Shown here piece after piece: positions 8-15,543 of a stretch of 18,549 bases of DNA (positions are counted from its first letter, which is position 1; the number at the start of each line of letters is the position of its first letter). The DNA lies in the NCBI GenBank assembly GCA_018813025.1, contig JAHJCL010000013.1, forward strand, positions 1-18,549, read 5' to 3'. Under the pieces are notes generated by a model that was given only the letters and a program-made list of their open reading frames with translations, did no database searches and was not told the DNA's origin. The translations under genes were made by a program, and so were the position numbers. This DNA comes from Patescibacteria group bacterium. GTDB taxonomy: Bacteria > Patescibacteriota > Minisyncoccia > Minisyncoccales > DG-74-3.

Positions 8-595
8 TTACTTTTTCTTTATTTTAATCACCTCGTCAATAATACCGTATTCTTTAGCCTCATCAGCTGATAGATAAAAATCTCTGTCAGTATCTCTTTC
101 AATGTTTTTTAACGACTGACCGGTGTGTTGAGATAGAATTTTATTTAATTTAGCATTAATTTTCATTATTTGTTTTGCCGTAATTTCAATTTCCGATGCT
201 TGGCCTTTAACTCCTCCTGCAATCTGATGCAATAAAATTTCTGAATTAGGAAGAGTAAATCTTTTACCTTTACTTCCGGCCGCTAATAATACTGCTCCCA
301 TCGAACCTGCTAAACCAATACAAACTGTAGAAATATGGCAATTAACATATTGCATAGTGTCATAAATAGCTAATCCGGCTGTAACCGAACCGCCTGGAGT
401 ATTGATGTAAAGCTTAATATCTTTCTTGGGGTCTTGGGAAGATAAAAATAAAAGTTGAGCTATTATTGAATTGGCTAAATTATCATCAACTACGCCAGCT
501 AAAAAAATAATTCTATCCTTTAAAAGACGGGAGTAGATGTCATAAGCTCTTTCGCCTTTAGTTGTTTTTTCAATAACTGTTGGAATTAAAACCAT
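8..595 (-). CDS. clpP: ATP-dependent Clp protease proteolytic subunit ClpP
   Basis: 195-aa ORF with ATG at 595. The N-terminus [32 protein letters not shown] is the canonical ClpP start. Ser/His/Asp triad contexts are present ([24 protein letters not shown]). Confidence 0.95.
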
Positions 596-607
596 ATTCT
601 TAAGAAA

Positions 608-1486
608 TTACTTTTTTAAAAAACCTTCTAATAGTTGGAAAGTTTTTTCATTAATTAATGCTTCTCTAGTATAACTTTTCACCTGTTCCGGGTCAATCGG
701 CTGTTTGGCCAAATCAGCGAAAGGCGACTTCTTTATTTCTTGCTCCACTTCATGATCGCTGACTGAAATATTATTTTTAAGACCAAGCTCTCTTAAAACT
801 AAAGAAATCTTAATTTTCTCTTGTGATTCTTGGAAAAAAGAATCTGAAATTTCTTTTTCTGTTTTTCCAATTTTTTTAAGATAATCGTCGAAACTTGTCT
901 GTAAACTTTGTAGAACGCTATTTTTCAAATTTTCCAACATTCTTTTTTGTTCCTGTTCAATTAAAACCAAAGGAATTTCCACTTTTACTTCTTTAGCTAT
1001 TTTTTTCAGTATTTCCTGCCTCAATCTTTCTTTTTCCCATTTAACTTTTTCTTGTTTAACCTTCTCTATCTCTTCTTTCGTGACCTCTACTTTTTTTTGT
1101 TCAATTTTAGAGAGAATCTGCTCATAATTAGGCAATTCGAACTTAGGCAAGACATAAACTTTAGCCTTAAATTCAAAAGGGTTATCTTTAGCTAATTTTA
1201 AAATTTCAACTTGAGGAGAAGAAATTACTTCAAGATTATTTTCTTGTCTTGCTTTAAAATAGGAATCTTGGATAGCATGATCGGCAGCTGCTAATAATAT
1301 TTTTTCTTGTCCGACTTCTTTTTCAATTACTTCTTTAGGCGCATTTCCTTTTCTAAAACCGGCAACGGTTAAATCTTTACCTAAATCTATAATTGCTTTT
1401 TGAATAAATTTTTCGAACTCATCAAAAGGAATCTCGCAAGTTAATTCAATTTGAGATTGAGATATTTTTTGGATAGATGATTTCAC
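608..1486 (-). CDS. tig: Trigger factor, short form without a PPIase domain
   Basis: 292-aa ORF with a GTG start at 1486 that overlaps the ppaC stop (GTGA). It has the ribosome-binding signature AGFRKGNAPKEV (GFRxGxxP). After VEVTKEEIEKVKQEKVKWEKE the sequence goes straight into a C-terminal arm-like helical region, and no FKBP-like segment lies between. Confidence 0.85.
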   Translation of the reverse strand: MKSSIQKISQSQIELTCEIPFDEFEKFIQKAIIDLGKDLTVAGFRKGNAPKEVIEKEVGQEKILLAAADHAIQDSYFKARQENNLEVISSPQVEILKLAKDNPFEFKAKVYVLPKFELPNYEQILSKIEQKKVEVTKEEIEKVKQEKVKWEKERLRQEILKKIAKEVKVEIPLVLIEQEQKRMLENLKNSVLQSLQTSFDDYLKKIGKTEKEISDSFFQESQEKIKISLVLRELGLKNNISVSDHEVEQEIKKSPFADLAKQPIDPEQVKSYTREALINEKTFQLLEGFLKK

Positions 1487-2421
1487 TTTTGTTCTAAAAA
1501 ATTAATAATTGATGGGACCAACTGCTTTTTACGGGAAACTACTCCAGGTAATATTAAAAACCGACCAACTGCTTTAGTATTGAAAGCGGATTCAGCTACT
1601 ACTTTTTCCTGCTCTAATAAAAATATTTTACTTTCCTGTTTTAAAATATCAACTAAAGCAAAAAAAATAAAATCCAGATTGTCTTCTTTCTTAACTAACT
1701 CTAAAGCAGTAAATATTTCGTCTTGAATATCCTCGGCTTTTTGAGGAAGGACGGTTTCTAATACTGAAACTCCGAACTTCTTTTCTCCAGCCTCATAATT
1801 TTTACAATCTCTGCTAATCAACTCTTTACCGGAAATTCCAGAAATATCAGATTTGGCTTCAAAAATCTGTTCAGCTAATTTGTCCATATCTTCTCCGGAA
1901 ATATCAATCAACTTTTTAGCCATATCTTTATCTTCTTGGGTAGTAGTCGGAGAAACAAGACTTAATGTATCGGAAATAATAGCTGCTAATAAAAGCCCGG
2001 CTTGTTTTTTATTTAAAACAATTTGATTTTCAAAAAACATTTCGGCGATAATCGTAGCTGTACTGCCCTTAGGTTCAGAACGATAAAAAATTGGAGAACT
2101 GGTGACAATACCTCCCATCTTGTGATGGTCTATTACTCCAACCAGATTAGCCTGCTCAATACCTTGAATTGATTGTTCGAATTCGCCATGATCTACCAAA
2201 AATACATCTTGGGAAGATAAAGAATCAATTTTTTGGGGAATATTTTGAGAAAAATAATTCAAAACAAATTGAATTTCTTTATTAAGATCTCCCGATGCTT
2301 TAGCTATTGCTTTTCCTTTAATTGGTTTTTGAGTCTGATTAATCAGCTCAGCCAGTAAAATAGAAGAAACAATGGTATCAGTATCGGGATTTTTATGACC
2401 AATAATAATTACTTCTTTCAT
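1483..2421 (-). CDS. ppaC: Manganese-dependent inorganic pyrophosphatase (family II, DHH/DHHA2)
   Basis: 312 aa. Motifs: GHKNPDTDT, VDH, VIDHHK, SDT, and the DHHA2 C-terminus with GVVSRKKQLVP. It appears collinear with my remembered Bacillus PpaC sequence over the whole length. Confidence 0.85.
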   Translation of the reverse strand: MKEVIIIGHKNPDTDTIVSSILLAELINQTQKPIKGKAIAKASGDLNKEIQFVLNYFSQNIPQKIDSLSSQDVFLVDHGEFEQSIQGIEQANLVGVIDHHKMGGIVTSSPIFYRSEPKGSTATIIAEMFFENQIVLNKKQAGLLLAAIISDTLSLVSPTTTQEDKDMAKKLIDISGEDMDKLAEQIFEAKSDISGISGKELISRDCKNYEAGEKKFGVSVLETVLPQKAEDIQDEIFTALELVKKEDNLDFIFFALVDILKQESKIFLLEQEKVVAESAFNTKAVGRFLILPGVVSRKKQLVPSIINFLEQK

Positions 2422-2472
2422 TTTTATTAAAAAATTTATTTTATTGAAAACAAATTTATTTATTTTTTAAGA

Positions 2473-2510
2473 AAAACAAGGTTCTTGAGCAAAGCGAAAG
2501 GTTCTTATTT
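2473..2510. repeat. Intergenic motif copy A (between nusA stop and ppaC start)
   Basis: aaaacaaggttct (2473-2485) and ggttcttattt (2500-2510) are identical to blocks at 3833-3845 and 3865-3875. Both copies have an AGCRA-rich centre. On the gene-sense strand the motif reads AAATAAGAACC...AGAACCTTGTTTT. Confidence 0.5.
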
Positions 2511-2512
2511 TT

Positions 2513-3799
2513 TTAATTTTCTTGTTCTTCTTTTGTGTTTTTTTCTTTTGTTTTTTTAGGTTTGGCTGGTTTTTTAGTTTTAACTGACTTCTTAACTTTT
2601 TTTTCTTCTGATATTTCTGATGTTTCTGTTTTTTCTTCTGTTTTTTCTCCTACTTCTTCCTGGGTTTCATCTCCAGTTTCTTTTTGTTCTTGGCCTCTGA
2701 CATCTATTTTCCAACCAGTAAGTTTAGCAGCTAATCTTACATTTTGACCATCTTTACCAATAGCTAAAGACAGTTGATCTTCAGGGACAATACAAACAAC
2801 TTTATTTTTAGGCATTAACTCCACTTCTAAAACTTTAGCTGGTGATAAGGAGTTAGAAATAAATTTAGCCGGATCATCAGACCACTCAATAATGTCTATT
2901 TTTTCTCCCCCTAATTCATTAATGATTGCCTGAACTCTTGTTCCCCGCTGGCCAACAGATGCTCCGATAGGATCAATTCCTTCAGTATTTGAGGTCACGG
3001 CAATTTTAGTACGAGAACCGGCTTCTCTGGCAATAGCCTTGATTTCAACCTGTCCATCAGCTATTTCCGGGACTTCTAATTCAAATAATTTGGAAATTAA
3101 TTTAGGATAAGCTCTAGACAGAAAAACTCTTGGCCCTTTAGGGGTATCTTCTACCTGGATAACGAAAACCTTTAATCTCTGACCGGGTCTGTAAAACTCT
3201 CCGGCTACCTGCTCTTCTTTGGGCAATACTCCTAATGTCTTGCCAATATCTAGAAAAATATTTCTACCTTCAATTCTTTGCACAATACCCGATAAAATTT
3301 CACCTTCCTTATCTTTATATTCACTTAAAACATTTTCTCTTTCTGCCTCTCTTAATTTTTGCATTATAACCTGCTTAGCAGTTTGAGCGGCGATTCGTCC
3401 GTAATCTTCTTTAGATTCCAAAAATGTTTCTAATTCTTCACCAACTTTAATTTTTTCATCAATCTTTTTAGCTTCATCAAGCATAATATGTTTTTCCGGA
3501 TTAAATTTAACTTTTTTGCCGTCAGCTTCATCTTCTTCCTTGTTTTTGTCTTTCAAATCTTCTATTTCTTCTTCTGAATAGAGAGAATCTTGATCAACTA
3601 CTATTTTGACTTGCCAAAACTTAACTGCACCTGACTGCGTATCAAGTTTAGCTTTAATAATCTGTCCTTTTTCCCCGTAGTCTTTTTTATAAGCAGCGGC
3701 TATTGCTTGTTCAATTGTTTCAAAAACCTTTTCAGCGGAAATTCCTTTTTCCTCTGAAATTTGATGAACCGCTGATATAAAATCTCTTATTTCAATCAT
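2513..3799 (-). CDS. nusA: Transcription termination/antitermination factor NusA
   Basis: 428 aa with bacterial architecture: N-terminal domain (ISEEKGIS...AYKKDYG), S1 domain (GIVQRIEGRNIFLDIGK), and KH1/KH2 (GASVGQRGTRVQAIINELGGEKIDII; SLAIGKDGQNVRLAAKLTGWKIDV). It also has an acidic insertion in the NTD and a K/E-rich C-terminal tail. Confidence 0.93.
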   Translation of the reverse strand: MIEIRDFISAVHQISEEKGISAEKVFETIEQAIAAAYKKDYGEKGQIIKAKLDTQSGAVKFWQVKIVVDQDSLYSEEEIEDLKDKNKEEDEADGKKVKFNPEKHIMLDEAKKIDEKIKVGEELETFLESKEDYGRIAAQTAKQVIMQKLREAERENVLSEYKDKEGEILSGIVQRIEGRNIFLDIGKTLGVLPKEEQVAGEFYRPGQRLKVFVIQVEDTPKGPRVFLSRAYPKLISKLFELEVPEIADGQVEIKAIAREAGSRTKIAVTSNTEGIDPIGASVGQRGTRVQAIINELGGEKIDIIEWSDDPAKFISNSLSPAKVLEVELMPKNKVVCIVPEDQLSLAIGKDGQNVRLAAKLTGWKIDVRGQEQKETGDETQEEVGEKTEEKTETSEISEEKKVKKSVKTKKPAKPKKTKEKNTKEEQEN

Positions 3800-3832
3800 A
3801 ATTTTTTAATTTTAATTTTCGAACGAAGTGAG

Positions 3833-3875
3833 AAAACAAGGTTCTGAGGAGCGAAGCGACGAATGGTTCTTATTT
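3833..3875. repeat. Intergenic motif copy B (upstream of nusA start)
   Basis: Shares a 13-nt block and an 11-nt block, both perfectly identical, with 2473-2510. It lies between the plsY terminator hairpin and the nusA ATG. Confidence 0.5.
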
Positions 3876-3894
3876 GAAAAATTTAATTATTTCT

Positions 3895-3920
3895 GCAAAA
3901 AGTCCGTTTTAAAACGGACT
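3895..3920 (-). terminator. Rho-independent terminator after the plsY/GGGPS/GGPPS operon
   Basis: Perfect 20-nt palindrome agtccgttttaaaacggact (3901-3920), giving an 8-bp stem and a 4-nt loop. On the minus strand it is followed by TTTTGCAG. It lies 22 nt downstream of the plsY stop. Confidence 0.65.
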
Positions 3921-3941
3921 GTTATGTAATAATAACAGAAG

Positions 3942-4601
3942 TTAATTCTTTGTCAATTTTTTTACTATCCTTTTAATTCTCCAGTCCTTGTAAAAATCGT
4001 CGTCAAAAATTAAACGATTTAATAAAACTTTTCTTCTTACTGCCGGATCTTTTAATTCTTTAATTGGGCTAAGGCGTTTTAAAAAAATCGGCAATAAAGA
4101 TAATTGGACTAATTGACCCACTGAATTTGATAAACCGAATTTATTACCCCAATAAAAGACTAAAACCAGCATAACAATAGTTCCAATAGATAAATTCCAA
4201 ATAATTCCTAATAAAAGGAAGGGAATTAAACTAAATTTAAAAACAACCGGCGAAAAAGCATATAAAGCACCGCCGAAAGTTCCTATTCCTCGGCCTCCGT
4301 TAAATTTTAAAAATAAAGACCAATTGTGGCCGACAACAGCTGCCACTCCGCATAATACCTGTATTGAATCCGGCTGACCATAATACTGAGCTAATCTGAC
4401 AGCCAGATATCCTTTTAAAATATCTAAAAGACCGGTTAAAGCTCCTTGCCAAATACCTATATTTTTAAAAACATTTGAACCAGATGTTTTCCTCCAACCA
4501 ATTTCCAATATGTCCTTTTGAACTGAAAGTTTAGTTATAATATGACCAGACGGAAAAGAGCCTAAAAGATAAGATAAAATAATGAAAAAAATATTTAACA
4601 T
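3942..4601 (-). CDS. plsY: PlsY-family glycerol-3-phosphate acyltransferase (acyl-phosphate dependent), divergent copy 1
   Basis: 219 aa, multi-TM. Matching elements: N-terminus ILSYLLGSFPSGHII, LLDILKG, and GHNWSLFLKFNGGRGIGT (compare GHxxPxxxxFxGGKGxAT). The glycine-rich GSGNxGATN loop is degenerate (GWRKTSGSNVFKN). Confidence 0.8.
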   Translation of the reverse strand: MLNIFFIILSYLLGSFPSGHIITKLSVQKDILEIGWRKTSGSNVFKNIGIWQGALTGLLDILKGYLAVRLAQYYGQPDSIQVLCGVAAVVGHNWSLFLKFNGGRGIGTFGGALYAFSPVVFKFSLIPFLLLGIIWNLSIGTIVMLVLVFYWGNKFGLSNSVGQLVQLSLLPIFLKRLSPIKELKDPAVRRKVLLNRLIFDDDFYKDWRIKRIVKKLTKN

Positions 4602-4635
4602 AATGATTTGAAGATAATAAATATTGAAATTAGTA

Positions 4636-5430
4636 TTATCTAATTAATCCTTTTTCTATTTTTTCTTTGCCTTTTTGTTTGATAATTTTTACAAACTCTT
4701 TAACTAATGCTTTTACATCTTTAGTTTCTTCAGCGGCTGTACCAATAGATAAACAATCAGCTCCGGCCGCAACAACTTTACCGGCTTGTTCAGGAGTTCT
4801 AATTCCTCCACCAACAATATAAATAGCATCTATTGCTTTTCTGACAGTTGTTATCATCTCCAAAGGAATGTGATCAAAAGCAGCTGAGCCGGCATCGGTA
4901 AAGACCATTCTTCTACCAGCAAGCTGGGCTGAAAGAGCTAAAGCAGCTGCGAGTTTCGGCCTATTTCTGGGAACTAAATTGGCATCACCAACCCAGCCAG
5001 CAGTTCCTCCTGGTTCAACTAAAATATAACCTGTGGGCAAAGCTTCTATGCCCATTTTTTTAATCATCGGCGCTGACAGCATTTGAGCTTGAGAAATCCA
5101 ATAAGGATTTCTGGAATTCAATAAACTCATAAAAAACACAGCGTCGGCTGATGCCGAAATTGTAGCAATGTTTCCGGGAAATAAAACAATAGGAACATCT
5201 GTTTCTTTCTTAATTCCCTTAATCACTGAATCTAATAACTCGCCCTGCGCTCCAGTACTGCCACCAACCCCCAGAATATCAGTGCCGGCTTCAACTGCTA
5301 ATAAAGCTGTTTCAATAGCTTTTTGGGGCGTGGAATAATCACAGGGATCAATTAAAATAGATAGAATTGCTCCGTCCTTTTGAACCCTATCATTAATATA
5401 TTTTTCAACTTTTCCTATTAATGGAATCAT
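4636..5430 (-). CDS. Geranylgeranylglyceryl phosphate synthase (GGGPS/PcrB family)
   Basis: 264 aa with TIM-barrel GGGPS/PcrB hallmarks: ILIDP, DILGVGGS, PIVLFPGN, YILVEPGG, IVGGGIRTPEQA. The ATG at 5430 overlaps the upstream GGPPS stop (ATGA). Confidence 0.88.
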   Translation of the reverse strand: MIPLIGKVEKYINDRVQKDGAILSILIDPCDYSTPQKAIETALLAVEAGTDILGVGGSTGAQGELLDSVIKGIKKETDVPIVLFPGNIATISASADAVFFMSLLNSRNPYWISQAQMLSAPMIKKMGIEALPTGYILVEPGGTAGWVGDANLVPRNRPKLAAALALSAQLAGRRMVFTDAGSAAFDHIPLEMITTVRKAIDAIYIVGGGIRTPEQAGKVVAAGADCLSIGTAAEETKDVKALVKEFVKIIKQKGKEKIEKGLIR

Positions 5431-6524
5431 ATTTTTCTTGTAATTAAAAAATTAACGAATTCTTCCAACCTTTTTTTAGCCGGAGATTCAGGTAAAAGTT
5501 TCTCGGCTTCCTGCCAAGCATCTCCCATAATTTCTTTAGCTTTAGTTTGAGCATATTCCACACTGCCATATTTTTTAATTATAGCTATGGCTTCTTCTTT
5601 CTCTTTTATATCATCGGTATGCTTGTCCAATATTCCTATTAATCTGGCTTTATCTTCATCACTGGCTTTCTTTAGAGTATGAATTACCATTAAAGTTCTT
5701 TTACCTTCTTTAATATCATTGCCGAACACTTTACCGAATTTATCTCTTTCTTCTCCTTCAGAAATTATATCTAAAATATCGTCCTGAATTTGAAAGGCAA
5801 CTCCCATTGTCTCAGCTACTCTTCCAGCTGCCTCAACCACTTGATCGCTGCCACCGGATAGAATAACTGCTAATTTAGCCGACATTCTAGAGAGACAACC
5901 TGTTTTGTAAGCACACATTTGCAAATATTCATCTTCTTCAATATTAACTGCCTTACCATTGTGCCAAAAAATATCCGTGCCTTGACCAAGATGAATATTA
6001 ATCATCTCTTGCGCATAAGTTTCATAAGCTTTCTGTAAAATAACACAAGTAAAATTATCTTTGTTCTTGATTAAAGCCAGTAGTGGATAAAAATACATAA
6101 AATTCCCTGCATTAATAGCAACGTCAACACCAAAAACCTTATGAAGACATGGCTCATTTCTTCTTAATTCTCCCATATCTTCAATGTCGTCAACGATAAT
6201 ACTTCCGTTGTGAATTATTTCCGGAATCATTACAATATCTTGGACTTTTTCCAAATCACCTCCAACAGCTTCAACAATTAGTAAAAATAAAACTGGTCGC
6301 CATCTTTTACCACCCCTATCTATAAAATTCCAAATTGGTTTCATGAATACCGCATCGGCCGCGTCCGGACTATAAGTATAACGAGGGTCGCCGAAAACAA
6401 ACTTTAGCCACTCTTGCGTGGCTTTTCTGGGAAGATATTTCTCAATAATTTTATCTATCTCCGGTTTTTTTGATTCTAGATACTCGATAAATTCTTTTGA
6501 CTTACTGTCTTGATTATCAGGCAT
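5427..6524 (-). CDS. Polyprenyl (geranylgeranyl) diphosphate synthase
   Basis: 365 aa trans-isoprenyl diphosphate synthase. First Asp-rich motif: IVDDIEDMGELRRNEP. Second: FQIQDDILD. It also has GKRWRP and GNDIKEGKRT. The HNGSIIVDDIED / INAGNFMYF context resembles type III GGPP synthases. Confidence 0.85.
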   Translation of the reverse strand: MPDNQDSKSKEFIEYLESKKPEIDKIIEKYLPRKATQEWLKFVFGDPRYTYSPDAADAVFMKPIWNFIDRGGKRWRPVLFLLIVEAVGGDLEKVQDIVMIPEIIHNGSIIVDDIEDMGELRRNEPCLHKVFGVDVAINAGNFMYFYPLLALIKNKDNFTCVILQKAYETYAQEMINIHLGQGTDIFWHNGKAVNIEEDEYLQMCAYKTGCLSRMSAKLAVILSGGSDQVVEAAGRVAETMGVAFQIQDDILDIISEGEERDKFGKVFGNDIKEGKRTLMVIHTLKKASDEDKARLIGILDKHTDDIKEKEEAIAIIKKYGSVEYAQTKAKEIMGDAWQEAEKLLPESPAKKRLEEFVNFLITRKI

Positions 6525-6545
6525 AATAAATTTTGAACTATTAAT

Positions 6546-6565
6546 AGTATATTATATAGTATACT
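6546..6565. promoter_or_regulatory. Near-palindrome in the divergent GGPPS/DGGGPS promoter region (candidate operator)
   Basis: agtatattatatagtatact matches its own reverse complement at 18 of 20 positions. It contains TAGTATA twice and sits in the 103-nt divergent intergenic region. The AT-rich background makes chance occurrence plausible. Confidence 0.25.
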
Positions 6566-6627
6566 GGTTATTGTTCTAAGAGAAAAGATAGCTTGTATTT
6601 TTAGCTATTTTGTCTATTATTGAGCTT

Positions 6628-7422
6628 ATGAATCCTTATCTTGAGATTATTCGTCCGCAAACATCATTAATAGCCGGATTAGGAGCAGTAGTGGGTACTA
6701 TTATTGCCGGTGCCCCATTTTGTACTGCTTCTTTATATATTTTCTTAACTGTTTTCCTTATGACCGGAGCCGGTATGGTAATCAATGATTATTATGATTT
6801 GGAAATAGATAAAATTAATGCTCCTCATAGACCATTACCCAGTCAAAGAATGTTACCCAGGACAGCTTTTGGCTACGGATTATTTTTATTCATTTCCAGT
6901 CTTGTTTTTGGAACTTTCACTAATGTTTATTGTTTTGCTTTAGCTCTTTTCAACAGCTTAATTGAATTCTTTTACGCCAAAACATTTAAAAAATGGTGGC
7001 TGTTGGGAAATATTATGGTCAGTTGGTTAGCTGGCTCTGTTTTTTTGTTCGGCGCTATGGTCACCTTTGATTTCAGATTAGTGGGAATTTTGTCCGGACT
7101 GGCTTTTTTAGCCAATATGGGCAGAGAAATTTTCAAAACCATTGAAGATGTTAAAGGAGATCGGGCAATGAATTTGGATACGCTTCCCATCGGTTCGGGA
7201 ATCAAAAATGCCAAAGAAATAGCACGAGGATTTATTTGTTTGGCAATTATCCTTTCTCCTATTCCTTATTTATCCGGACTTTTAAAAAGTACTTACCTAC
7301 AAATTGTTTTAATCAGCGACTTAATTTTTTTCTACTCTCTTTTTCAATCTCCCACTAAGGCTAAAAATTTAGCCAAAATTGCTATGTTTATAGTTCTTTT
7401 AGCAATTTTAGTCAGCTTCTAA
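6628..7422 (+). CDS. UbiA-family prenyltransferase, digeranylgeranylglyceryl phosphate synthase-like
   Basis: About 8 predicted TM segments. UbiA Asp-rich motif: NDYYDLEIDKINAPHRPLPS. Second motif region: KTIEDVKGD. ATG at 6628 gives MNPYLEIIRPQ, typical of the family. The ORF track's alternative TTG start is at 6610. Confidence 0.85.
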   Translation: MNPYLEIIRPQTSLIAGLGAVVGTIIAGAPFCTASLYIFLTVFLMTGAGMVINDYYDLEIDKINAPHRPLPSQRMLPRTAFGYGLFLFISSLVFGTFTNVYCFALALFNSLIEFFYAKTFKKWWLLGNIMVSWLAGSVFLFGAMVTFDFRLVGILSGLAFLANMGREIFKTIEDVKGDRAMNLDTLPIGSGIKNAKEIARGFICLAIILSPIPYLSGLLKSTYLQIVLISDLIFFYSLFQSPTKAKNLAKIAMFIVLLAILVSF

Positions 7423-7428
7423 ATGAAA

Positions 7429-8550
7429 TTATCCAAAACTGGTTCCACTTCTCTGAAGGATTGAAAACAACTTGAATAATTGCCAAGCTCGACTTCTTAA
7501 TTTCGACTTAGAAAAAAACTTAACGAGTCCGGACAAATTCTTCAAATCCAGAGGATTTTTGTTTTCTGAAATATCAGCAATCTCATTCAAAACTGAATTG
7601 GGCAAACTGTACAAAACTTTTTGAGCATACATTAGGTCTTCACTGAAATAGGACATTGATTTTAATTTCTTTTCAAAGAGATGACTGGAATTATTAAGAA
7701 TTGCTTCAGTCGCCAATCTTCCTGAAATCATCGCGTTGTTTATTCCTCCGCCTAAAACCGGGTCAATCAAGGCTCCGGCATCACCAACCAAAAAAACATT
7801 ATCTTTGAATAATTTAATCCTCATTCCGCCATAAGTAATTAATCCGCTCTTATTAGTCAAAAGTTTGTAATTGCCGAATTCAGGAACAACGGTCGTGTCC
7901 ATAAAATATTTAAATCTTTTATCTAACTCTTTATACCCACCCAAACCAATATTAGCTGTATGTTTTGATTTAGGAAAAATCCAAACATATCCATCAGGGT
8001 ATTTCTCTTTATCAAAATATAATCTTATCGTTGATATTAGTACCTCTTTTTCAAGTTCAACTAAATATTCGTAAGTCGGTAAAATCCCGAATTTGCCTCC
8101 AAAGAGCTTAGTTCTGGTTACTGAAAGGGGACCATCAGCGCCAATAATATATTGAGCTCTGTAAATGTCTCCTTTTTCGGTATAGACTGCCCAGCAGTCT
8201 TTTTCCCTTTTTAAATCAACTACTTTGCTTTCTAATTTTATTTCTGCCTGACACTGCGTTGCTAAAAACTTCTCGAAAGCAACCCTATCTAAAACATAAC
8301 CGGCGTCTTGGCCCGGCAAAATAATTTTTTTACCTGAAGGAACAATTACCTCAATATTTTGAATAAACGTAGAAATCCAAGCAGGGTCAGGGGTGATTCC
8401 CTGTATTGATAAAGCTATCTGACTTAAACCCTCGCCACACTGGACTGGTTTACCAATTTCTTTCTTCTTGTCCAGAATTAAAGAATTATCCAAATACTTA
8501 CCGGCAATCAACCCCGCTGGACCGGCTCCAATAATAATCGTCTTAAACAT
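7429..8550 (-). CDS. FAD-dependent geranylgeranyl reductase (digeranylgeranylglycerophospholipid reductase-like)
   Basis: 373 aa. Motifs: N-terminal IIIGAGPAGLIAG dinucleotide fold, YVWIFPK, and GDAGALIDPVLGGGINNAMISG. The start overlaps the plsY copy 2 stop by 8 nt (ATGTTTAA). Confidence 0.85.
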   Translation of the reverse strand: MFKTIIIGAGPAGLIAGKYLDNSLILDKKKEIGKPVQCGEGLSQIALSIQGITPDPAWISTFIQNIEVIVPSGKKIILPGQDAGYVLDRVAFEKFLATQCQAEIKLESKVVDLKREKDCWAVYTEKGDIYRAQYIIGADGPLSVTRTKLFGGKFGILPTYEYLVELEKEVLISTIRLYFDKEKYPDGYVWIFPKSKHTANIGLGGYKELDKRFKYFMDTTVVPEFGNYKLLTNKSGLITYGGMRIKLFKDNVFLVGDAGALIDPVLGGGINNAMISGRLATEAILNNSSHLFEKKLKSMSYFSEDLMYAQKVLYSLPNSVLNEIADISENKNPLDLKNLSGLVKFFSKSKLRSRAWQLFKLFSILQRSGTSFG

Positions 8551-9208
8551 TATTTTGATTTTTTGTTTTTATATTTTTTATACCTCTATAATACCATTTA
8601 GGTATTTCACCTTTAAGAGCTGGAATAACACTTGGCCACTGTTTAATGAAAATTGGAATCGCCATTAAAAGACAAACCAAAAAATAATTGGGAGATAATG
8701 AATAACCAATTAAAGGCAGAAGAAAATTACCCATGAACTGGCCGAAGAAAAAACTTTGAGTAGCTAAAATAAAAACAATAGCCATAGCCGCCCAAGGTAA
8801 AAGCAACCAATTGAAATCTAAAACCCACAATATTCCGATTAAAGAGGCTTGTGCTTTGCCTCCAGAAAGTTTACCATCCTTAATTTTGAAATAAATAGAA
8901 AAACAATGCCCTAGAACTACTCCGAATCCGGCTATGGTCATAACTAAAATTTGATTGTACCCGAGGTAAGAAAAATATTTCGCAATTAATACAGGGAGAG
9001 CTCCTTTGGAGGCATCAATAAAAGTTGTGATTAGAAAAAGTAATGGTTTGTCGGTAACTCGCATTACGTTTAAAGCACCTACATTTTTGGTTTCTTCTTC
9101 CCTAATATCTTTATTTGAATATTTCTTTACAATCAAATAGGCGGTTGGAAAAGAACCTAAAAAATAAGATGAGACGAAGAACAAAATCGAATAAATTATA
9201 TTGTTCAT
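8543..9208 (-). CDS. plsY: PlsY-family acyltransferase, divergent copy 2
   Basis: Multi-TM. Matching elements: YFLGSFPTAYL, NVGALNVMR (partial GSGNxGATNVxR), FIDASKG, and GHCFSIYFKIKDGKLSGGKAQAS (GGKG motif with an insertion). ATG at 9208 is preferred. The ORF track's start at 9220 is a TTG. Confidence 0.8.
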   Translation of the reverse strand: MNNIIYSILFFVSSYFLGSFPTAYLIVKKYSNKDIREEETKNVGALNVMRVTDKPLLFLITTFIDASKGALPVLIAKYFSYLGYNQILVMTIAGFGVVLGHCFSIYFKIKDGKLSGGKAQASLIGILWVLDFNWLLLPWAAMAIVFILATQSFFFGQFMGNFLLPLIGYSLSPNYFLVCLLMAIPIFIKQWPSVIPALKGEIPKWYYRGIKNIKTKNQNNV

Positions 9209-9216
9209 TTCTTTAA

Positions 9217-10917
9217 TCAATAATTTCCATCTATTATATCCCAGGAAGCGATTAAACTTCCACTGACAATACTTTGGTCAAAAACTGAAGCTATAGAATT
9301 GATGAAAGAAACTTCAGCTTTTATTTCTTTCAATCTTTTTTTCAAAGATTCTGCCTGTTCAATATTATTTTTATGAGCAATAACTACTCTGATCTTTTGA
9401 CCATTTTGTCTTGATTTTTTAGTTTGCTTTTTAATTTCTATAAAAATTGCTTCTGATGCGTCTTGGGCTCTAAAACAAGAACTAATCCTAACCCATTGGC
9501 CTCTTCTGAGTCCAACCAACGGCTTAAAACCAATACTTTGCCATCTTTTAGCCCATTTTATAATAGGACTCCTGATAAAATTGTCTTGTTCTACTTTGGC
9601 TAAAAGTGGCAAAAATAGATAGGTCTGAATTTCCCGAGCTTTTTTATCAAGAATTTTAATAATCTCTCTTATTTCCCTCTGTTCTTTAATTAATCCAATG
9701 GCTTTTAAAATTAATAAACCCTGACCCGAACTGATATTTAAAGAATCAAAAACATAAACCCTGTAGGGGTCAACGAGTTTTAAGCGAAACTCCATGGCTT
9801 TTTGATAATTCAAATTAAATTTAGAAGAGCTGACAATAATCAACAATCTTTTAAATTTTTCTAACTGTTGATTGCAAACACTGATAAAATCATCCGGATC
9901 AGACAAAGAAGAAATAACTTTAATATAGTACCTCTCAATAATCTTATCAGTCAAATTTGAACTATTATCAGTAATGATACCAATTGAAAAATTACGCAAT
10001 GACTCTTCTCCGGCTGATTCTCTCGCCATATCTTCAACTCTCATCTCCTTGATTTCTCCAGCTGATCTAATAATTTCTTTTGCTTCTTCAATAGTGTCAG
10101 TATGAATATGAACTTTCATTCGATTACCAAAACTTACAACATCTAAACTATTACCGAATCGACTTAATTTTTCTTTAATGACCTTTTCAGTCATTTTCGG
10201 GTTTTCTATTAAAGCAACTATTTCATAGCGATTAGAAATGGTTTGAATAAATCTCCTAACCTCTTCTGACGGTCTGTCCATAATAATTTTAACTTTTTCT
10301 TCCTGAACTCCGTCTAAAGCATCAAGATAGCTTTCTAAAATGATTAAGAAACCCATCCCGCCGGCATCAACGACATTGGCCTTTTTTAATAACTCCATCT
10401 GGTTCTGCGTTTCTACTAAAGCTTTTTTAGCTTCTTGAATTGCTGTTTGAAACAAAATAATAATATCTTTTTCGGTTGAAACTCCTTGTTCAAAAGATTG
10501 AGCGGTTGCTTCAATCACATCTAAAATAGTTCCTTTTTTCGGGGACTGAATGCTATCTCTGGCCCTTTGATAACCTTTTCGAAAATACTCGGCCAGTTGC
10601 TGCGGTCCGACAGAATTTTCTTTTCCTAAAGAAGAAAAAAATCCAGCTAAAAAACCGGTATAAATAATACCGGCATTACCCTGGGCGGTGGTCATTGCCC
10701 CAGTTAAAATGGCATTAGAAATATCGTTTAAACTATTAAAATTTTTATTTTGAATTTCACTTCGAATCCCAGCCAGAGTCTTAGCTAAATTAGTCCCTGT
10801 GTCTTGATCGGGTACCGGGAAAACATTGATTTTATTTATCTCCTCCTTATCTCTTTCAACTCGTTCATAGGATAGAAGCATCATTTTCTTTAATTCCTTG
10901 GGAGTCAAATAGTCCAT
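9217..10917 (-). CDS. fakA: Fatty acid kinase FakA-like protein (DAK2/DhaL domain plus DegV-like C-terminal domain)
   Basis: 566 aa. The N-terminal DAK2 signature is INVFPVPDQDTGTNLAKT. The C-terminal ~250 aa align by eye with the stand-alone DegV ORF at 14540-15421: IGIITDNSSNLTDKIIERY vs IGLIVDEGADLTPEIIEKY, VFDSLNISSGQGLLILKA vs IIDSLSAVCGEGLLALKA, and GQKIRVVIAH vs GKKIKVFISH. Confidence 0.8.
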   Translation of the reverse strand: MDYLTPKELKKMMLLSYERVERDKEEINKINVFPVPDQDTGTNLAKTLAGIRSEIQNKNFNSLNDISNAILTGAMTTAQGNAGIIYTGFLAGFFSSLGKENSVGPQQLAEYFRKGYQRARDSIQSPKKGTILDVIEATAQSFEQGVSTEKDIIILFQTAIQEAKKALVETQNQMELLKKANVVDAGGMGFLIILESYLDALDGVQEEKVKIIMDRPSEEVRRFIQTISNRYEIVALIENPKMTEKVIKEKLSRFGNSLDVVSFGNRMKVHIHTDTIEEAKEIIRSAGEIKEMRVEDMARESAGEESLRNFSIGIITDNSSNLTDKIIERYYIKVISSLSDPDDFISVCNQQLEKFKRLLIIVSSSKFNLNYQKAMEFRLKLVDPYRVYVFDSLNISSGQGLLILKAIGLIKEQREIREIIKILDKKAREIQTYLFLPLLAKVEQDNFIRSPIIKWAKRWQSIGFKPLVGLRRGQWVRISSCFRAQDASEAIFIEIKKQTKKSRQNGQKIRVVIAHKNNIEQAESLKKRLKEIKAEVSFINSIASVFDQSIVSGSLIASWDIIDGNY

Positions 10918-10925
10918 AGTTTAAA

Positions 10926-11588
10926 TTAGCGAATTTTTTCCTCGAATTCTTTCAAAATTTTAGTGGCTATGTCTTTTCCGCCAAGACCGAAGGCAATACC
11001 CACGGCTATAACTATTGTTCCGATAAAACCGATAAAAATAGTCATAATAAGGTCTGGTGCAATTTGAAGTTGGTAGAGAATTGCCAATATTGATAAACTC
11101 CAAATTATCCAGCGAATAATCCGACCTAAAAAACGGGAATAAGTAATTTTTTCTTTTTCCAAAACAGCAATCATTATTTTCTGGGAGAAATCAGAGATAA
11201 AAACCGCGGTAATAAAAATTAAAGAAGCAATAAAAATGTTAGGGAAATAGGCAATAGCTTGAGCTAAAAGTTGACTAAATTGAAGTAAACCGATAATCTC
11301 GGCCGATGCCATTAAAAAAAGAAGGGTTACAAAACAGCTGGTGATACGACCGAAAAATTTAGGAACATTAAAATAGGTATCGGAAGTCATTAATCTTTCT
11401 TCCAAATCCATTCTTTTAATGGCCTGTCCTAATTGAATTTTTTCTAAAAAACGGCTGACTAAGTTGCCAACCCATTTTGAGACAAAAAGACCGATAATAA
11501 AAATCCAAATTGCCCAAATAAGGTTGGGTAGGTTTTCAACGAAACTCTCTAAAAATAATTGTAAAAAACTTTCTGAAGTAATTAACAT
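10926..11588 (-). CDS. Integral membrane protein of unknown function (about 5 TM, MscS-N-terminal/'TM helix repeat'-like)
   Basis: 220 aa with five hydrophobic segments and a short charged C-terminus (KILKEFEEKIR). It is wedged between carS (20-nt gap) and fakA (8-nt gap). I recognised no catalytic motif. Confidence 0.6.
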   Translation of the reverse strand: MLITSESFLQLFLESFVENLPNLIWAIWIFIIGLFVSKWVGNLVSRFLEKIQLGQAIKRMDLEERLMTSDTYFNVPKFFGRITSCFVTLLFLMASAEIIGLLQFSQLLAQAIAYFPNIFIASLIFITAVFISDFSQKIMIAVLEKEKITYSRFLGRIIRWIIWSLSILAILYQLQIAPDLIMTIFIGFIGTIVIAVGIAFGLGGKDIATKILKEFEEKIR

Positions 11589-11608
11589 ATCATTTAATTA
11601 ATTTTATC

Positions 11609-12178
11609 TTACCATTGGCTCTTAGACAAGCCTAATTTATAGCCAATTTGAGTGGCGCCAACGTGTAGAATAAAAGTTAAGACAAAAAGAACTAACCAGA
11701 CAGATAAATTAATTTGAATTTTAGAAAAAACAAACAGAAAGAGAGCCGCACCAAGAACATAATTAATTTGGTCAAAAGGAACAAACTTCGCTCCCGGTTT
11801 TAAATCTAAACGCCTTTTAATAAAAGCGAAGAATAAATCGCCGAAAATTGCTCCGAGGGTCATTGATAAAGCAAAATTCCAGATATTGATATTGGAATAA
11901 TTTATAATACTGATGCTTTGCATTAACGGACAATTAATGAAAAGCCATTTTTGATAAAAAATAATCATTATTCCGATTGACGAACCTACAATTATACCTC
12001 TCCAAGTTTTATGATCTCCCAACAAGGGTTTGCCCATAAATTGTTTACCTGCGTCAATTGGTTTAGCTAAAAATTTAAATATCCCTAGAGTAGCTGACAA
12101 TGAAGGAGTCATATTTGTCAAATAAGCGGGAAAAAAGAAATAGAAACAAGGTAGGATTAGATTAACAAAATTATCCAT
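11609..12178 (-). CDS. carS: CDP-archaeol synthase (CarS, DUF46 family; CDP-2,3-bis-O-geranylgeranyl-sn-glycerol synthase)
   Basis: 189 aa, 5-TM. CarS family signatures are present: PIDAGKQFMGKPLLGDHKTWRG, GAIFGDLFFAFIKRR, VPFDQINY, and a C-terminal ...LSKSQW. The size matches archaeal CarS. Confidence 0.85.
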   Translation of the reverse strand: MDNFVNLILPCFYFFFPAYLTNMTPSLSATLGIFKFLAKPIDAGKQFMGKPLLGDHKTWRGIIVGSSIGIMIIFYQKWLFINCPLMQSISIINYSNINIWNFALSMTLGAIFGDLFFAFIKRRLDLKPGAKFVPFDQINYVLGAALFLFVFSKIQINLSVWLVLFVLTFILHVGATQIGYKLGLSKSQW

Positions 12179-12221
12179 TTCAAAAATTGATTATTAGTTA
12201 TTTTAGATGTAAAATTATCCA

Positions 12222-12884
12222 ATGAAAGCTGACTTGCACGTTCATACTAATTATTCTTACGATAGCATATCTTCTCCGCAGGAAATAGTCAAAGCAGCTC
12301 TTCAAAAAGGGCTTGACTGTATTGCTATTTGCGACCATGGAGAAATAAATGGAGCAATTGAAGCAATTAAAGCGGCCTTTGACAAGCCGATTCTGGTTAT
12401 CCCGGGAATTGAGATAAAAAGCCAAGAAGGCGATATTTTGGGTTTAAATGTTAAAACAATAATTCCTAACGGACTTTCAGTCTTGGAAACAATTTTAGAA
12501 ATTAAAAAAGCTGGTGGACTGGTGGTGATACCGCATCCATTCGGACTTTGCTGTTCTTTTGACGGTAATTTAAAAAATATCATTGAACATATTGATGCTA
12601 TAGAAGTTTTAAACGCCAATATTTTTAAGAATAATAACCAAAAAGCTCTATCTTTGGCTAAGGAACATAATTTTGCAATAACCGCTGGTTCTGATGCTCA
12701 CAGCTCAATGTTTGTTGGTGAAGCCTTTTTAGAAATTCCGGGAGAAAAATTATCAATCAGCCAGATATTCGAACAAATTAAGAATAAAAGATGTAAGCCA
12801 TCAGGAAAAGAAACCAATATCTTTTTAAAAGGAATTGCTTTCTTACAGAGAAGTTGGGCAAAAATAAAGTATTACACAAAATAA
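12222..12884 (+). CDS. PHP-domain metal-dependent phosphoesterase
   Basis: 220 aa. PHP motifs: DLHVHTNYSYDS, ICDHG, VVIPHPF, EVLN, GSDAHS. It is divergent from carS (43-nt gap) and lies 6 nt upstream of the CDP-alcohol phosphatidyltransferase. Confidence 0.85.
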   Translation: MKADLHVHTNYSYDSISSPQEIVKAALQKGLDCIAICDHGEINGAIEAIKAAFDKPILVIPGIEIKSQEGDILGLNVKTIIPNGLSVLETILEIKKAGGLVVIPHPFGLCCSFDGNLKNIIEHIDAIEVLNANIFKNNNQKALSLAKEHNFAITAGSDAHSSMFVGEAFLEIPGEKLSISQIFEQIKNKRCKPSGKETNIFLKGIAFLQRSWAKIKYYTK

Positions 12885-12890
12885 CAACCC

Positions 12891-13487
12891 ATGTTATCAG
12901 AAAAAAGAGAACAATTTAAAAAATTAGAAGCAATAGTCGGTGATTTTTTTTCTAAGTTTTTGACTGCTAATCAATATTCTGGTTTAGCCATTTTAATGGC
13001 TTTGTTTTTTTTAAAATTTATTATTTCCGGCAATCTCAAAGTTGCTTTAATTTTTTTAATAACAACTTCTTTTTTAGATTTTGTTGATGGTGCTGTGGCG
13101 CGCAAAACCAACACTGCTTCCAATAAAGGAGCTTATTTGGATACAATTTTAGACCGCTATGTTGAGGCAATCGTTTTGTTCAGTTTCTTATTTCTACCCT
13201 TACCTAAACTATTGTTTCCCAGTTATGTCTGGATTTTATTTACCCTACTCGGTTCTTTTATGACCACTTATGCTAAAGCAGCTGGAAAAGAAAAAGAAAT
13301 ATTAAAAACCGAATTAAAAAAGGGGTTGATTGGCCGGGGAGAAAGAATGATTTTAGAATCTTTAGCCATATTATTCGGTATCTTTAATTTTAATTGGACG
13401 CTATTTTGTATTATTATTTTAGCTATTCTGTCTAACATCACTGCTTTTCAAAGAATTTACCTTGTTTTGAATAATGAAAATATTTAA
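12891..13487 (+). CDS. CDP-alcohol phosphatidyltransferase (archaetidyl/phosphatidyl head-group transferase; head group undetermined)
   Basis: 198 aa, multi-TM. It has an exact D-G-x2-A-R-x8-G-x3-D-x3-D signature: DFVDGAVARKTNTASNKGAYLDTILD. Confidence 0.9.
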   Translation: MLSEKREQFKKLEAIVGDFFSKFLTANQYSGLAILMALFFLKFIISGNLKVALIFLITTSFLDFVDGAVARKTNTASNKGAYLDTILDRYVEAIVLFSFLFLPLPKLLFPSYVWILFTLLGSFMTTYAKAAGKEKEILKTELKKGLIGRGERMILESLAILFGIFNFNWTLFCIIILAILSNITAFQRIYLVLNNENI

Positions 13488-14496
13488 TATTTCAGGACTC
13501 AAAAAAACTTATAGTCTTCTCAGGAAAACTTCTCGAATACAAGGACCTGATATCGATCAAAAATTAATAGACCAGATAATGTATAGTTTTGAGGCACTGC
13601 CACCATTTGGCAAAGAATACTGGTGGTTTCTTTTTTTAGATAATGATGGACCAAAACCAATTCAACTAATGTTAATGATTTGTCGAAAATATGGCAAAGA
13701 AATGTGGATTGATGATACTAAGATGACACTGAAAGATTTAGGGAAAGATGGAATAAAATCAGCTGTAACCGGCTGGCTTTACGATGGAAACAAGATGATC
13801 AACCTGGGCAACACCAATGGAATTGTCAAAATAACTGATAAAAAAATTATTACTGAAATTGCCGGCAATAAATTGATTTTTGAAGGCAGTTTTCCTTTTT
13901 ATAAATTGACAGTGGGTGATATTATTGATTTAAACATCAGTCACGAAAATACTTTAGTCAAAAGAAACAAAGAAGCTTACGGCATTTTCTGGCCACCATT
14001 CGGAGTCGGTTATTTTAATCTTTATCCCGATGTTTCCGGAACTATTTTTGGAAAAACATTTCAAGGAACCGGCCATTTACAAAAAGTTGTCGGTATCGCT
14101 CCTCACTTTCCTTATAACTGGGTCAGAATAATTTTTAAAAACGGATCTATGTTAAGGTTTTCCGATATTCGGCCTAAAAAAATACATGTTGAGAGATCGA
14201 TAGATTTTTATGATAATAATGAAAATAAAATTATTAAATTCAGCAAACCGAGTTTAAAAATATCTCGATCTGACAATTCTTTAATCTGGACATTGGAAGG
14301 ACAGGACAAAAACAATTACGCTAAAGTTGTTTTGGAAGCCTACGCTAAAAAACAATTTGTTATGAAAGGCGGAGGATCATTAACTTATGTTGAGTATTGT
14401 GTTATTCCTAAAGAATTGATTTTAAAAATTAAAGAAAAAACCATCACCTTAAATGATTTAGGTGATGGTGTGGGAACTTTAGAAGACGCCTATTAA
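13474..14496 (+). CDS. Hypothetical soluble protein, function unknown (weak tocopherol-cyclase/CrtC-like pattern, unverified)
   Basis: 340-aa ORF whose start overlaps the preceding transferase gene by 14 nt. No TM segment or signal peptide. The composition is rich in W, F, Y and G and looks beta-rich. Patches GKEYWWFLFL, GIAPHFPYNWVRIIF and C-terminal GVGTLEDAY recall lipocalin-like isoprenoid cyclase/hydratase families, but only from memory. Confidence 0.7.
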   Translation: MKIFNISGLKKTYSLLRKTSRIQGPDIDQKLIDQIMYSFEALPPFGKEYWWFLFLDNDGPKPIQLMLMICRKYGKEMWIDDTKMTLKDLGKDGIKSAVTGWLYDGNKMINLGNTNGIVKITDKKIITEIAGNKLIFEGSFPFYKLTVGDIIDLNISHENTLVKRNKEAYGIFWPPFGVGYFNLYPDVSGTIFGKTFQGTGHLQKVVGIAPHFPYNWVRIIFKNGSMLRFSDIRPKKIHVERSIDFYDNNENKIIKFSKPSLKISRSDNSLIWTLEGQDKNNYAKVVLEAYAKKQFVMKGGGSLTYVEYCVIPKELILKIKEKTITLNDLGDGVGTLEDAY

Positions 14497-14515
14497 AATT
14501 AATAGGATTATTAAC

Positions 14516-14535
14516 AATTAGCAAGCTTGCTTATT
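14516..14535. terminator. Possible weak bidirectional terminator hairpin between convergent genes
   Basis: aattagcaagcttgcttatt contains a perfect 12-nt palindrome agcaagcttgct (14520-14531) extended by imperfect AT pairs. It sits centrally in the 43-nt convergent gap. There is no clear U-tract. Confidence 0.3.
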
Positions 14536-14539
14536 AATA

Positions 14540-15421
14540 TTATTCGGCATACCAAGCAAGACCGATAAGTCCCGGGCCAGCGATGCTTCCAACGACATAA
14601 TCAGCTAAAGAAATTAAAACAACTTCTGTATTGTCTAAATTTTCTTTAATTAACTTTCCTAATTTTTCAGCTCCTTCTAAATTAATAATATGAGAGATAA
14701 AAACTTTAATCTTCTTTCCTTCTTGGCGAGGTTTTTTTGTTTTAGACTCAAGTTCTTTAAACAAAGCTTCAGGCACATCCTTAACTCCAGTTTTAACTCC
14801 AATTGGCTTAAGTACGCCTTCTTTAAATCCTAAAATTGGCCTAACGCCAAAATTAGCTGCTTTTCTAATCCAACTGGCTACCATCGGAGAAATACGGCCG
14901 GCATGTTCCAACCATTTAGGATCTTCGAGAATCGCATAAAGATGAATTCTAGATGGCATTTCTTTTAATTCTTTAACAATCATTTCAATATCGTTTCCGT
15001 TATTGATCAATTCAGCGGCTTTTAAGGCTAAAAGTCCCTCACCGCAGACTGCACTTAGAGAATCTATAATAAAAACATTGTTTTTCTGCTCTTCAGGCAG
15101 AAAACTAATTGCTTGAATTGCTGAGTTGTATGTCCCTGATAGTTTAGAGGTAACGGTAGTGCAGATGATCTTATCAAATTTTTCTAATTGCGCTTTAAAA
15201 ATATCTAAAAAATCTTTAGGCGATGGTTGGGATGTTTTACAGAATATTTTTACCCCTCTTTTATCTGCTTCTCGCATTTTGTGAAAAATACTTTCGCCAG
15301 GTAATTCCATTATTTCCGACGGCCACTCTACTTTTAAAGGAACAACTGCAATCTGATATTTCTCTATTATTTCTGGGGTCAAATCAGCCCCCTCATCAAC
15401 TATTAATCCAATTTTATTCAT
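14540..15421 (-). CDS. DegV family fatty-acid-binding protein (FakB-like)
   Basis: 293 aa. DegV hallmarks: N-terminal KIGLIVDEGADL, KTSQPSP, TVTSKLSGTYNSA, IIDSLSAVCGEG, and the C-terminal ISHIINLEGAEKL. Confidence 0.9.
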   Translation of the reverse strand: MNKIGLIVDEGADLTPEIIEKYQIAVVPLKVEWPSEIMELPGESIFHKMREADKRGVKIFCKTSQPSPKDFLDIFKAQLEKFDKIICTTVTSKLSGTYNSAIQAISFLPEEQKNNVFIIDSLSAVCGEGLLALKAAELINNGNDIEMIVKELKEMPSRIHLYAILEDPKWLEHAGRISPMVASWIRKAANFGVRPILGFKEGVLKPIGVKTGVKDVPEALFKELESKTKKPRQEGKKIKVFISHIINLEGAEKLGKLIKENLDNTEVVLISLADYVVGSIAGPGLIGLAWYAE

Positions 15422-15426
15422 ATTTT

Positions 15427-15454: not shown

Positions 15455-15468
15455 AATTTTTTATAAAG

Positions 15469-15542: not shown

Positions 15543-15543
15543 G

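Follow-up and report, generated by a model that had tools for sequence, protein, structure and literature searches.

An 18,549-nucleotide contig (JAHJCL010000013.1; this whole stretch of DNA is called the window below) of the Patescibacteria genome assembly GCA_018813025.1 was found to carry a contiguous, nearly complete gene module for archaeal-type isoprenoid ether phospholipids, placed within a bacterial locus for the use of scavenged fatty acids. The module encodes geranylgeranyl diphosphate (GGPP) synthase (GGPPS), geranylgeranylglyceryl phosphate (GGGP) synthase (GGGPS), digeranylgeranylglyceryl phosphate (DGGGP) synthase (DGGGPS) and geranylgeranyl reductase (GGR), which appear to derive from DPANN-type archaea, and lies beside a CDP-lipid synthase, CarS, which appears native to the host lineage. 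Overall, we estimate a probability of roughly 55% that this bacterium starts from scavenged precursors and makes isoprenoid diether lipids of the archaetidylinositol type as part of a mixed membrane.

The isoprenoid core

Genes were called by an open reading frame (ORF) scan of the window with Pfam and NCBIfam profile searches, and the module enzymes were additionally matched to PDB entries. The genes and motifs described in the initial annotation, which had been made from the sequence alone, were all present where it had placed them, and its view of the lipid enzymes as archaeal-type was borne out by family models and nearest solved structures, which are those of archaeal lipid enzymes. The predicted core enzymes are as follows.

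5427..6524, minus strand: GGPP synthase, a short-chain isoprenyl diphosphate synthase (PF00348, polyprenyl_synt, E 2.3e-67; DDIED and DDILD motifs)
4636..5430, minus strand: GGGP synthase, PcrB/GGGPS family (PF01884, E 3.7e-51)
6610..7422, plus strand, starting at ATG 6628 or TTG 6610: DGGGP synthase, UbiA family (PF01040, E 7.5e-36; motif NDYYDLEIDKIN)
7429..8550, minus strand: geranylgeranyl reductase, a lipid-saturating FAD enzyme (TIGR02032, above cut-off)

The top NCBIfam model for the GGPP synthase was IdsA_Meth, with a score below the cut-off. The GGGPS protein scored above the cut-offs of TIGR01769 (GGGP) and NF003198, reached only 28 with the heptaprenylglyceryl phosphate synthase model NF003197 (cut-off 260), and matched GGGPS entries of the PDB (4mm1/5ndy) with an E-value of 1e-72, compared to 7.5e-8 for PcrB/heptaprenylglyceryl phosphate synthase. 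A Bacillus-type PcrB identity, which the initial annotation had named among the outcomes that would overturn its reading, is excluded by the TIGR01769 match, the NF003197 score and the PDB E-values, and on its family matches the protein is assigned as a true GGGP synthase of the group II/archaeal type. The UbiA-family protein had been proposed to be DGGGP synthase, and this assignment held: its top NCBIfam model was PRK12882, GGGP geranylgeranyltransferase (253 bits; cut-off 296), and it matched the DGGGPS structure 6m31 with an E-value of 2.3e-45, identifying it as a predicted DGGGP synthase. For GGR, the second NCBIfam model was DGGPL_Thplmales, and the nearest PDB entry was 3oz2, the Thermoplasma digeranylgeranylglycerophospholipid (DGGGPL) reductase (E 2.2e-30).

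These assignments bear on whether the product is a membrane lipid at all. The PcrB-family products of Bacillus are minor lipids whose role is unclear, and a non-membrane isoprenoid, for instance a polyprenyl-glyceryl phosphate acting as carrier or glycolipid anchor and resembling Bacillus heptaprenylglyceryl phosphate, could also serve as a substrate for the beta-barrel accessory protein described below. However, the GGGPS here is of the group II/archaeal type and not PcrB, and DGGGPS, CarS, GGR and a head-group transferase make up a membrane-phospholipid route, so that we regard a non-membrane product as quite improbable.

The CDP-lipid synthase CarS

11609..12178, minus strand: CarS-family CDP-lipid synthase (PF01864, E 1.2e-28; motifs GDHKTWRG and FGDLFFAFIKRR)

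CarS scored 131.5 bits with PRK04032 (cut-off 148), matched the CarS structure 5guf in the PDB, and is the sole CTP_transf_1 match and the sole CDP-lipid synthase in the host genome. Its homologs, which it matches at 50-60%, are named as Patescibacteria, Paceibacterales and Nealsonbacteria. We sampled the phylum with 301 GTDB Patescibacteria genomes of 0.5-1.6 Mb, and CarS-family genes were found in 60 of them (~20%), nearly all without GGGPS and usually adjoining a generic CDP-alcohol phosphotransferase. In addition, Patescibacteria UBA4067, the genome with the nearest locus, keeps a PlsY-CarS-MscS-FakA neighbourhood and is without the module. The initial annotation had counted CarS as a member of the archaeal set, and this did not stand: its co-transfer from archaea is excluded, as it is one of a CarS-like lineage that is widespread in Patescibacteria. 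We regard CarS, on this gene distribution, as native to the host lineage, because 60 of the 301 Patescibacteria carry CarS-family genes, mostly without GGGPS, and it was probably recruited by the incoming archaeal genes. Here it would probably activate DGGGP to CDP-archaeol, with a role like that of a CDP-diacylglycerol synthase in the relatives; the absence of CdsA and the adjoining CDP-alcohol phosphotransferase suggest that the CarS-like enzyme is the CDP-lipid synthase of ordinary Patescibacterial phospholipid synthesis.

Head group and accessory genes

12891..13487, plus strand: CDP-alcohol phosphotransferase, inositol type (PF01066; DGAVARKTNTASNKGAYLDTILD, an exact DGx2ARx8Gx3Dx3D motif)
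12222..12884, plus strand: PHP-domain phosphoesterase (PF02811 and PF13263; CehA/McbA metallohydrolase in NCBIfam)
13474..14496, plus strand: lipocalin-like double beta-barrel protein of 340 amino acids (AttH/kievitone-hydratase/Diels-Alderase fold)

The CDP-alcohol phosphatidyltransferase of the initial annotation has the exact motif and could be refined to the inositol type. Its top NCBIfam model was archin_ph_syn, archaetidylinositol-phosphate synthase (125.6 bits; cut-off 180), its PDB matches (4mnd, AF2299 and Mycobacterium tuberculosis PgsA1) are of the inositol type, and the host genome encodes a myo-inositol-1-phosphate synthase on another contig (C30). No close homologs of the transferase were found in other Patescibacteria. 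From its best matches, the enzyme appears to be archaetidylinositol-phosphate-synthase-like, and the head group of the predicted lipid would be inositol. The PHP gene is a candidate for the phosphatase that would convert archaetidylinositol phosphate to archaetidylinositol, because it adjoins the CDP-alcohol phosphotransferase gene both here and in a JGI metagenome contig.

The beta-barrel protein belongs to no Pfam family, even when 86 homologs are considered. Its AlphaFold model (pLDDT 92) matched AttH (2ich, E 5e-9) and kievitone hydratase (7a0t) in Foldseek searches and also resembles fungal Diels-Alderases and 25-phosphosteroid lyase; its Atlas neighbours are archaeal hypothetical proteins and CrtC/tocopherol-cyclase clusters. 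The gene was not found in the JGI contig, in the corresponding contig of the genome of Parcubacteria bacterium DG_74_3, or in 300 Patescibacteria, and thus, among the sampled Patescibacteria, occurs in the host genome only. Kievitone hydratase is a prenyl hydratase, and by its modelled fold the protein may be an isoprenoid-chain hydratase, for example for hydroxyarchaeol-type lipids, which we offer as a lead on an optional accessory of the module.

The lipid locus and its conservation

The module is interleaved with the following genes of bacterial lipid metabolism and membrane function.

3942..4601, minus strand: PlsY-A, glycerol-3-phosphate acyltransferase paralog adjoining GGGPS (PF02660, E 3.6e-30)
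8543..9220, minus strand: PlsY-B, glycerol-3-phosphate acyltransferase, the FakA-adjacent copy (PF02660, E 5e-31; 62% identical to the FakA-adjacent PlsY of the JGI contig)
9217..10917, minus strand: FakA, fatty acid kinase for exogenous fatty acid activation (Dak2, FakA-like_M and DegV)
10926..11588, minus strand: MscS-type membrane protein, an MscS-like channel (PF05552; kept in UBA4067, the JGI contig and DG_74_3)
14540..15421, minus strand: DegV/FakB fatty-acid-binding protein (PF02645, E 6e-53)

Along the window, on both strands, the order is ClpP, trigger factor, PpaC-like, NusA, PlsY-A, GGGPS, GGPPS, DGGGPS, GGR, PlsY-B, FakA, MscS, CarS, PHP, CDP-alcohol phosphotransferase, beta-barrel, DegV/FakB, tRNAs and CCA-adding enzyme, and the base composition is even throughout. 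The same order, from ClpP through the PlsY, isoprenoid, FakA, MscS, CarS, PHP and CDP-alcohol phosphotransferase genes to DegV (the beta-barrel gene apart), recurs in DG_74_3 (GCA_001302985.1) and in the JGI contig, and the module genes are intact and 60-94% conserved across relatives. Four of the genes were absent from the list of the initial annotation, namely those for the second PlsY (PlsY-A), the MscS-like protein, the PHP enzyme and the beta-barrel protein; they are conserved and intact and are not chance ORFs.

UBA4067 keeps ClpP, trigger factor, NusA, CCA-adding enzyme, PlsY, CarS, MscS, FakA and DegV without the isoprenoid genes, and a Patescibacterial fatty-acid phospholipid block of FakA/FakB, PlsY, CarS-like, CDP-alcohol phosphotransferase and MscS genes is found in both the window and UBA4067. 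The MscS-type gene is part of this conserved Patescibacterial backbone. Because UBA4067 retains the backbone without the isoprenoid genes, comparison of the loci indicates that this lipid locus already existed in Patescibacteria when the archaeal genes entered it. PlsY-A is ~60% identical to the GGGPS-adjacent PlsY of the JGI contig and DG_74_3 and ~27% identical to PlsY-B, and no close homolog of it was found among 300 other Patescibacteria; by these identities it is classed as a paralog associated with, and dedicated to, the module. A third PlsY-like gene lies on contig C19 (22915-23346, plus strand; 36% identical to PlsY-A), bringing the genome to three PlsY paralogs.

Origin of the module

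When homologs of DGGGPS were ranked, Patescibacteria came first (94-48%), followed by Aenigmarchaeota, Aenigmatarchaeota, Diapherotrites and Methanoperedens (38-45%). Trees were built with IQ-TREE under LG+C20 and carry midpoint roots only. In the DGGGPS tree, the Patescibacteria fall together in a single clade (99* SH-aLRT), whose sister group includes Diapherotrites; in the GGGPS tree, the Patescibacteria (66 rows) are split from a sister clade containing Aenigmarchaeota (55 rows) with a support of 93. An Aenigmarchaeota GGGPS gene (GCA_039091535.1) stands in an archaeal context that includes TFIIB, histone and eIF5A. Since GGGPS and DGGGPS each form one Patescibacterial clade sister to DPANN, and the Aenigmarchaeota GGGPS has archaeal neighbours, the trees point to one acquisition, in which an ancestral Patescibacterium received the genes from DPANN-type archaea, and to vertical descent thereafter. 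The ether-lipid pathway is ancestrally archaeal, and the direction of this transfer, given midpoint roots, is taken from the archaea being the ancestral owners of the pathway. On the Aenigmarchaeota contig, GGGPS adjoins a UppS-like prenyltransferase and lies near a polyprenyl synthetase, a context unlike the Patescibacterial module.

The host genome and the integrity of the window

The genome consists of 542 kb in 40 contigs (the window is its contig C35), with a CheckM completeness of 95.7% and a contamination of 0.17%. It is that of a streamlined bacterium of the candidate phyla radiation (CPR; Patescibacteria), in agreement with the initial annotation: the host is bacterial because sigma-70 is present, TBP is absent, the 16S rRNA is bacterial at full length (contig C23, locus positions 16053-18541), and RNase P is of the bacterial class A. 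An archaeal genome had been suggested by a cmscan archaeal small-subunit call on the 16S rRNA with its 3' end cut off, and is excluded by the full-length bacterial 16S, the sigma-70 and the lack of TBP. The 16S rRNA carries an insertion of ~700 bp, which is probably an intron; 16S introns are frequent in CPR bacteria. A genome-wide tRNA scan with ARAGORN recorded a tRNA-Ile with the anticodon TAT, unusual for a bacterium.

The context genes named by the initial annotation (ClpP, trigger factor, PpaC-like DHH/DHHA2, NusA, FakA with Dak2 and DegV, DegV, class II CCA-adding enzyme and tRNA-Pro) were likewise recovered. Those flanking the lipid locus are as follows.

8..3799, minus strand: conserved bacterial flank of ClpP, trigger factor, PpaC-like DHH/DHHA2 and NusA with NTD, S1 and KH (Pfam; same order in DG_74_3 and the JGI contig)
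15469-15616, minus strand: tRNA-Ala and tRNA-Pro
15699-17165, minus strand: class II CCA-adding enzyme (Pfam)

Beyond these, a cysteine-rich secreted protein (17206-18549, plus strand), with weak matches to T4SS-pilin and InlB B-repeat, runs past the window end; such cysteine-rich proteins are typical among Patescibacterial surface proteins.

The contig integrity, which the initial annotation had wished to see verified, was examined with Logan contigs. Two of these cover 5096-10156 and 10211-17168, independent runs cover the module piecewise, and the Logan contigs that span the window come from three independent studies (a 2016 biofilm, a 2019 groundwater and a 2024 groundwater study). A chimeric assembly is excluded by these contigs together with the identical gene order in two independent assemblies; the arrangement is real, because Logan contigs of independent studies span the module. 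In Logan contigs of three runs, position 2506 is joined straight to 3809, omitting the NusA gene of ~1.3 kb, and a joint that goes back 1400 was also seen. The NusA region is flanked by weak AT-rich direct/inverted repeats (2495-2526 / 3860-3891), and the joints that skip NusA may reflect differences between strains or an error of assembly.

Proposed pathway and precursor supply

The pathway that we propose would have begun with one transfer, in which GGPPS, GGGPS, DGGGPS and GGR came from DPANN-type archaea together with a PlsY paralog, the inositol-type CDP-alcohol phosphotransferase, the PHP enzyme and, in this genome, the beta-barrel protein. The set would have landed in the host lipid locus, where FakA/FakB would activate scavenged fatty acids, PlsY would acylate glycerophosphate and CarS would make CDP-lipids. 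GGPP and glycerol-1-phosphate (G1P) would yield GGGP and then DGGGP, from which the CarS-like enzyme would make CDP-archaeol; the CDP-alcohol phosphotransferase would transfer myo-inositol-1-phosphate from the host inositol-1-phosphate synthase, the PHP enzyme would strip the phosphate, and GGR would saturate the chains, so that the end products would be diether lipids of the archaetidylinositol type. In the resulting membrane, isoprenoid ether lipids would be mixed with scavenged ester lipids.

Several findings weigh against this pathway. The G1P dehydrogenase EgsA/AraM, searched for as Fe-ADH_2 (PF13685), was not found in the 95.7%-complete genome, extending to the whole genome the earlier observation that none is present in the window. 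As sources of glycerol-3-phosphate (G3P), GpsA and the glycerol kinase GlpK were not found in the genome (glycerophosphodiester phosphodiesterase was not searched for), nor were HMG-CoA reductase and IspH (isopentenyl diphosphate (IPP) isomerase, UppS and the other steps of the methylerythritol phosphate (MEP) pathway were not searched for). In addition, the substrate specificities of the CDP-alcohol phosphotransferase and CarS are not certain, because both score below the NCBIfam equivalog cut-offs, and the lineage is a minor one, because GGGPS occurs in only 1 of the 301 sampled GTDB Patescibacteria. Thus the enzyme genes behind the six consecutive steps of the initial annotation stand, but not a de novo run, as no known G1P or G3P source and neither HMG-CoA reductase nor IspH was found. 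PlsC was also not found in the host genome; this is uninformative, because ~80% of Patescibacteria are without PlsC. On contig C30, the neighbourhood of the inositol-1-phosphate synthase includes a protein in which only the C-terminal domain of HMG-CoA synthase is present (3227-4387 and 1550-2641 of the locus).

Since G1P dehydrogenase, GpsA, glycerol kinase, HMG-CoA reductase and IspH were not found, IPP, G1P and G3P must be imported or salvaged from a partner or the surroundings. We read the absence of precursor synthesis as suggesting supply by a partner, because the cells cannot make their own precursors. Patescibacteria are partner-dependent, and imported precursors fit this CPR lifestyle. 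Lipid recycling and gene flow between Patescibacteria and DPANN have been described (PMC12455944).

The same absences allow other readings of the product. The isoprenoid ether lipids could be built on a G3P backbone, with bacterial stereochemistry, G3P perhaps being the sole imported glycerophosphate. The lack of EgsA/AraM in so complete a genome is consistent with this, and the same option was raised for Candidatus Cloacimonetes, also without G1P dehydrogenase (PMC7852524). However, GpsA and GlpK were not found here, which leaves the cell without its own production of G3P as well, and the Cloacimonetes GGGPS was assayed with both G1P and G3P (PMC7852524). Characterised GGGPS-family enzymes are specific for G1P, and we doubt a G3P backbone while granting it some weight. 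A second reading is that the module finishes partner-derived G1P, IPP/GGPP or part-built archaeal lipids, with GGR reducing, CarS activating, and the CDP-alcohol phosphotransferase and PHP enzyme adding the head group. That all three precursor routes are missing would fit such a role, as would the partner dependence of Patescibacteria, their gene flow with DPANN (PMC12455944) and the DPANN donor lineage. However, a finishing role would leave no need for GGPPS, GGGPS and DGGGPS, and yet they are intact across relatives, and no archaeal partner has been identified; this reading seems rather unlikely to us.

Our preferred reading remains the synthesis of archaetidylinositol-type diether lipids from scavenged precursors. 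A more speculative extension, which we advance only tentatively, is a hybrid or mixed membrane in which archaeal-type inositol phospholipids of the isoprenoid diether class, a part of them perhaps chain-hydrated by the beta-barrel protein, stand beside scavenged fatty-acid lipids, with G1P and IPP/GGPP coming from an archaeal (DPANN-associated) partner. If true, this would be a living natural case of a bacterial membrane of mixed chirality or mixed chemistry.

Comparison with known systems

Bacterial retention of archaeal-type ether lipids would bear on the "lipid divide" and on mixed-membrane models of eukaryote origin, and a conserved, vertically kept, nearly complete module makes the mixed-membrane question testable in nature. 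It also clearly exemplifies the passage of genes for a core membrane pathway from archaea (DPANN) to CPR bacteria. The initial annotation had called the locus not a characterised system, which holds in part: GGGPS with DGGGPS was already known in Parcubacteria (PMC7852524) and the module is present in DG_74_3, but the full contiguous module is new. What is new comprises the contiguous module with the reductase, the CarS recruitment, the inositol-type transferase, the candidate phosphatase and the beta-barrel accessory, as well as its placement in the fatty-acid-scavenging lipid locus of the host, its DPANN affinity and its lack of a precursor pathway.

The archaeal ether-phospholipid pathway, as in Methanosarcina, Thermoplasma and Archaeoglobus, uses the same families in the same step order (GGPPS, GGGPS, DGGGPS, CarS, inositol-type transferase and DGGGPL-type GGR). 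In contrast to that pathway, the one described here is without G1P dehydrogenase and HMG-CoA reductase, stands in a bacterial genome at a FakA/FakB/PlsY locus, and has a host-lineage CarS, along with a beta-barrel accessory and a PlsY paralog specific to the module. Among bacteria, Candidatus Cloacimonetes of the FCB group were shown to have colocated GGGPS and DGGGPS and an archaeal-type GGR, with no G1P dehydrogenase (Villanueva et al., 2021; PMC7852524), features that the present genome shares. However, the Cloacimonetes are without CarS and have the MEP pathway, whereas CarS and an inositol-type CDP-alcohol phosphotransferase are present here and no HMG-CoA reductase or IspH was found; their affinity is to TACK/Crenarchaeota, whereas here it is to DPANN (Aenigmarchaeota and Diapherotrites) and the host is a streamlined Patescibacterium. 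The same study recorded GGGPS and DGGGPS in one Parcubacteria genome (via Hug et al., 2016) and showed that a bacterial GGGPS is active with G1P (PMC7852524). DG_74_3 has the same gene order, with protein identities of ~60-69%, and the present genome, of only 542 kb, additionally carries the beta-barrel accessory. Finally, PcrB of Bacillus subtilis is likewise a bacterial member of the GGGPS family that prenylates glycerol phosphate, but the enzyme of the window is remote from PcrB, and to the PcrB pathway the DGGGPS, CarS and head-group steps are added here.

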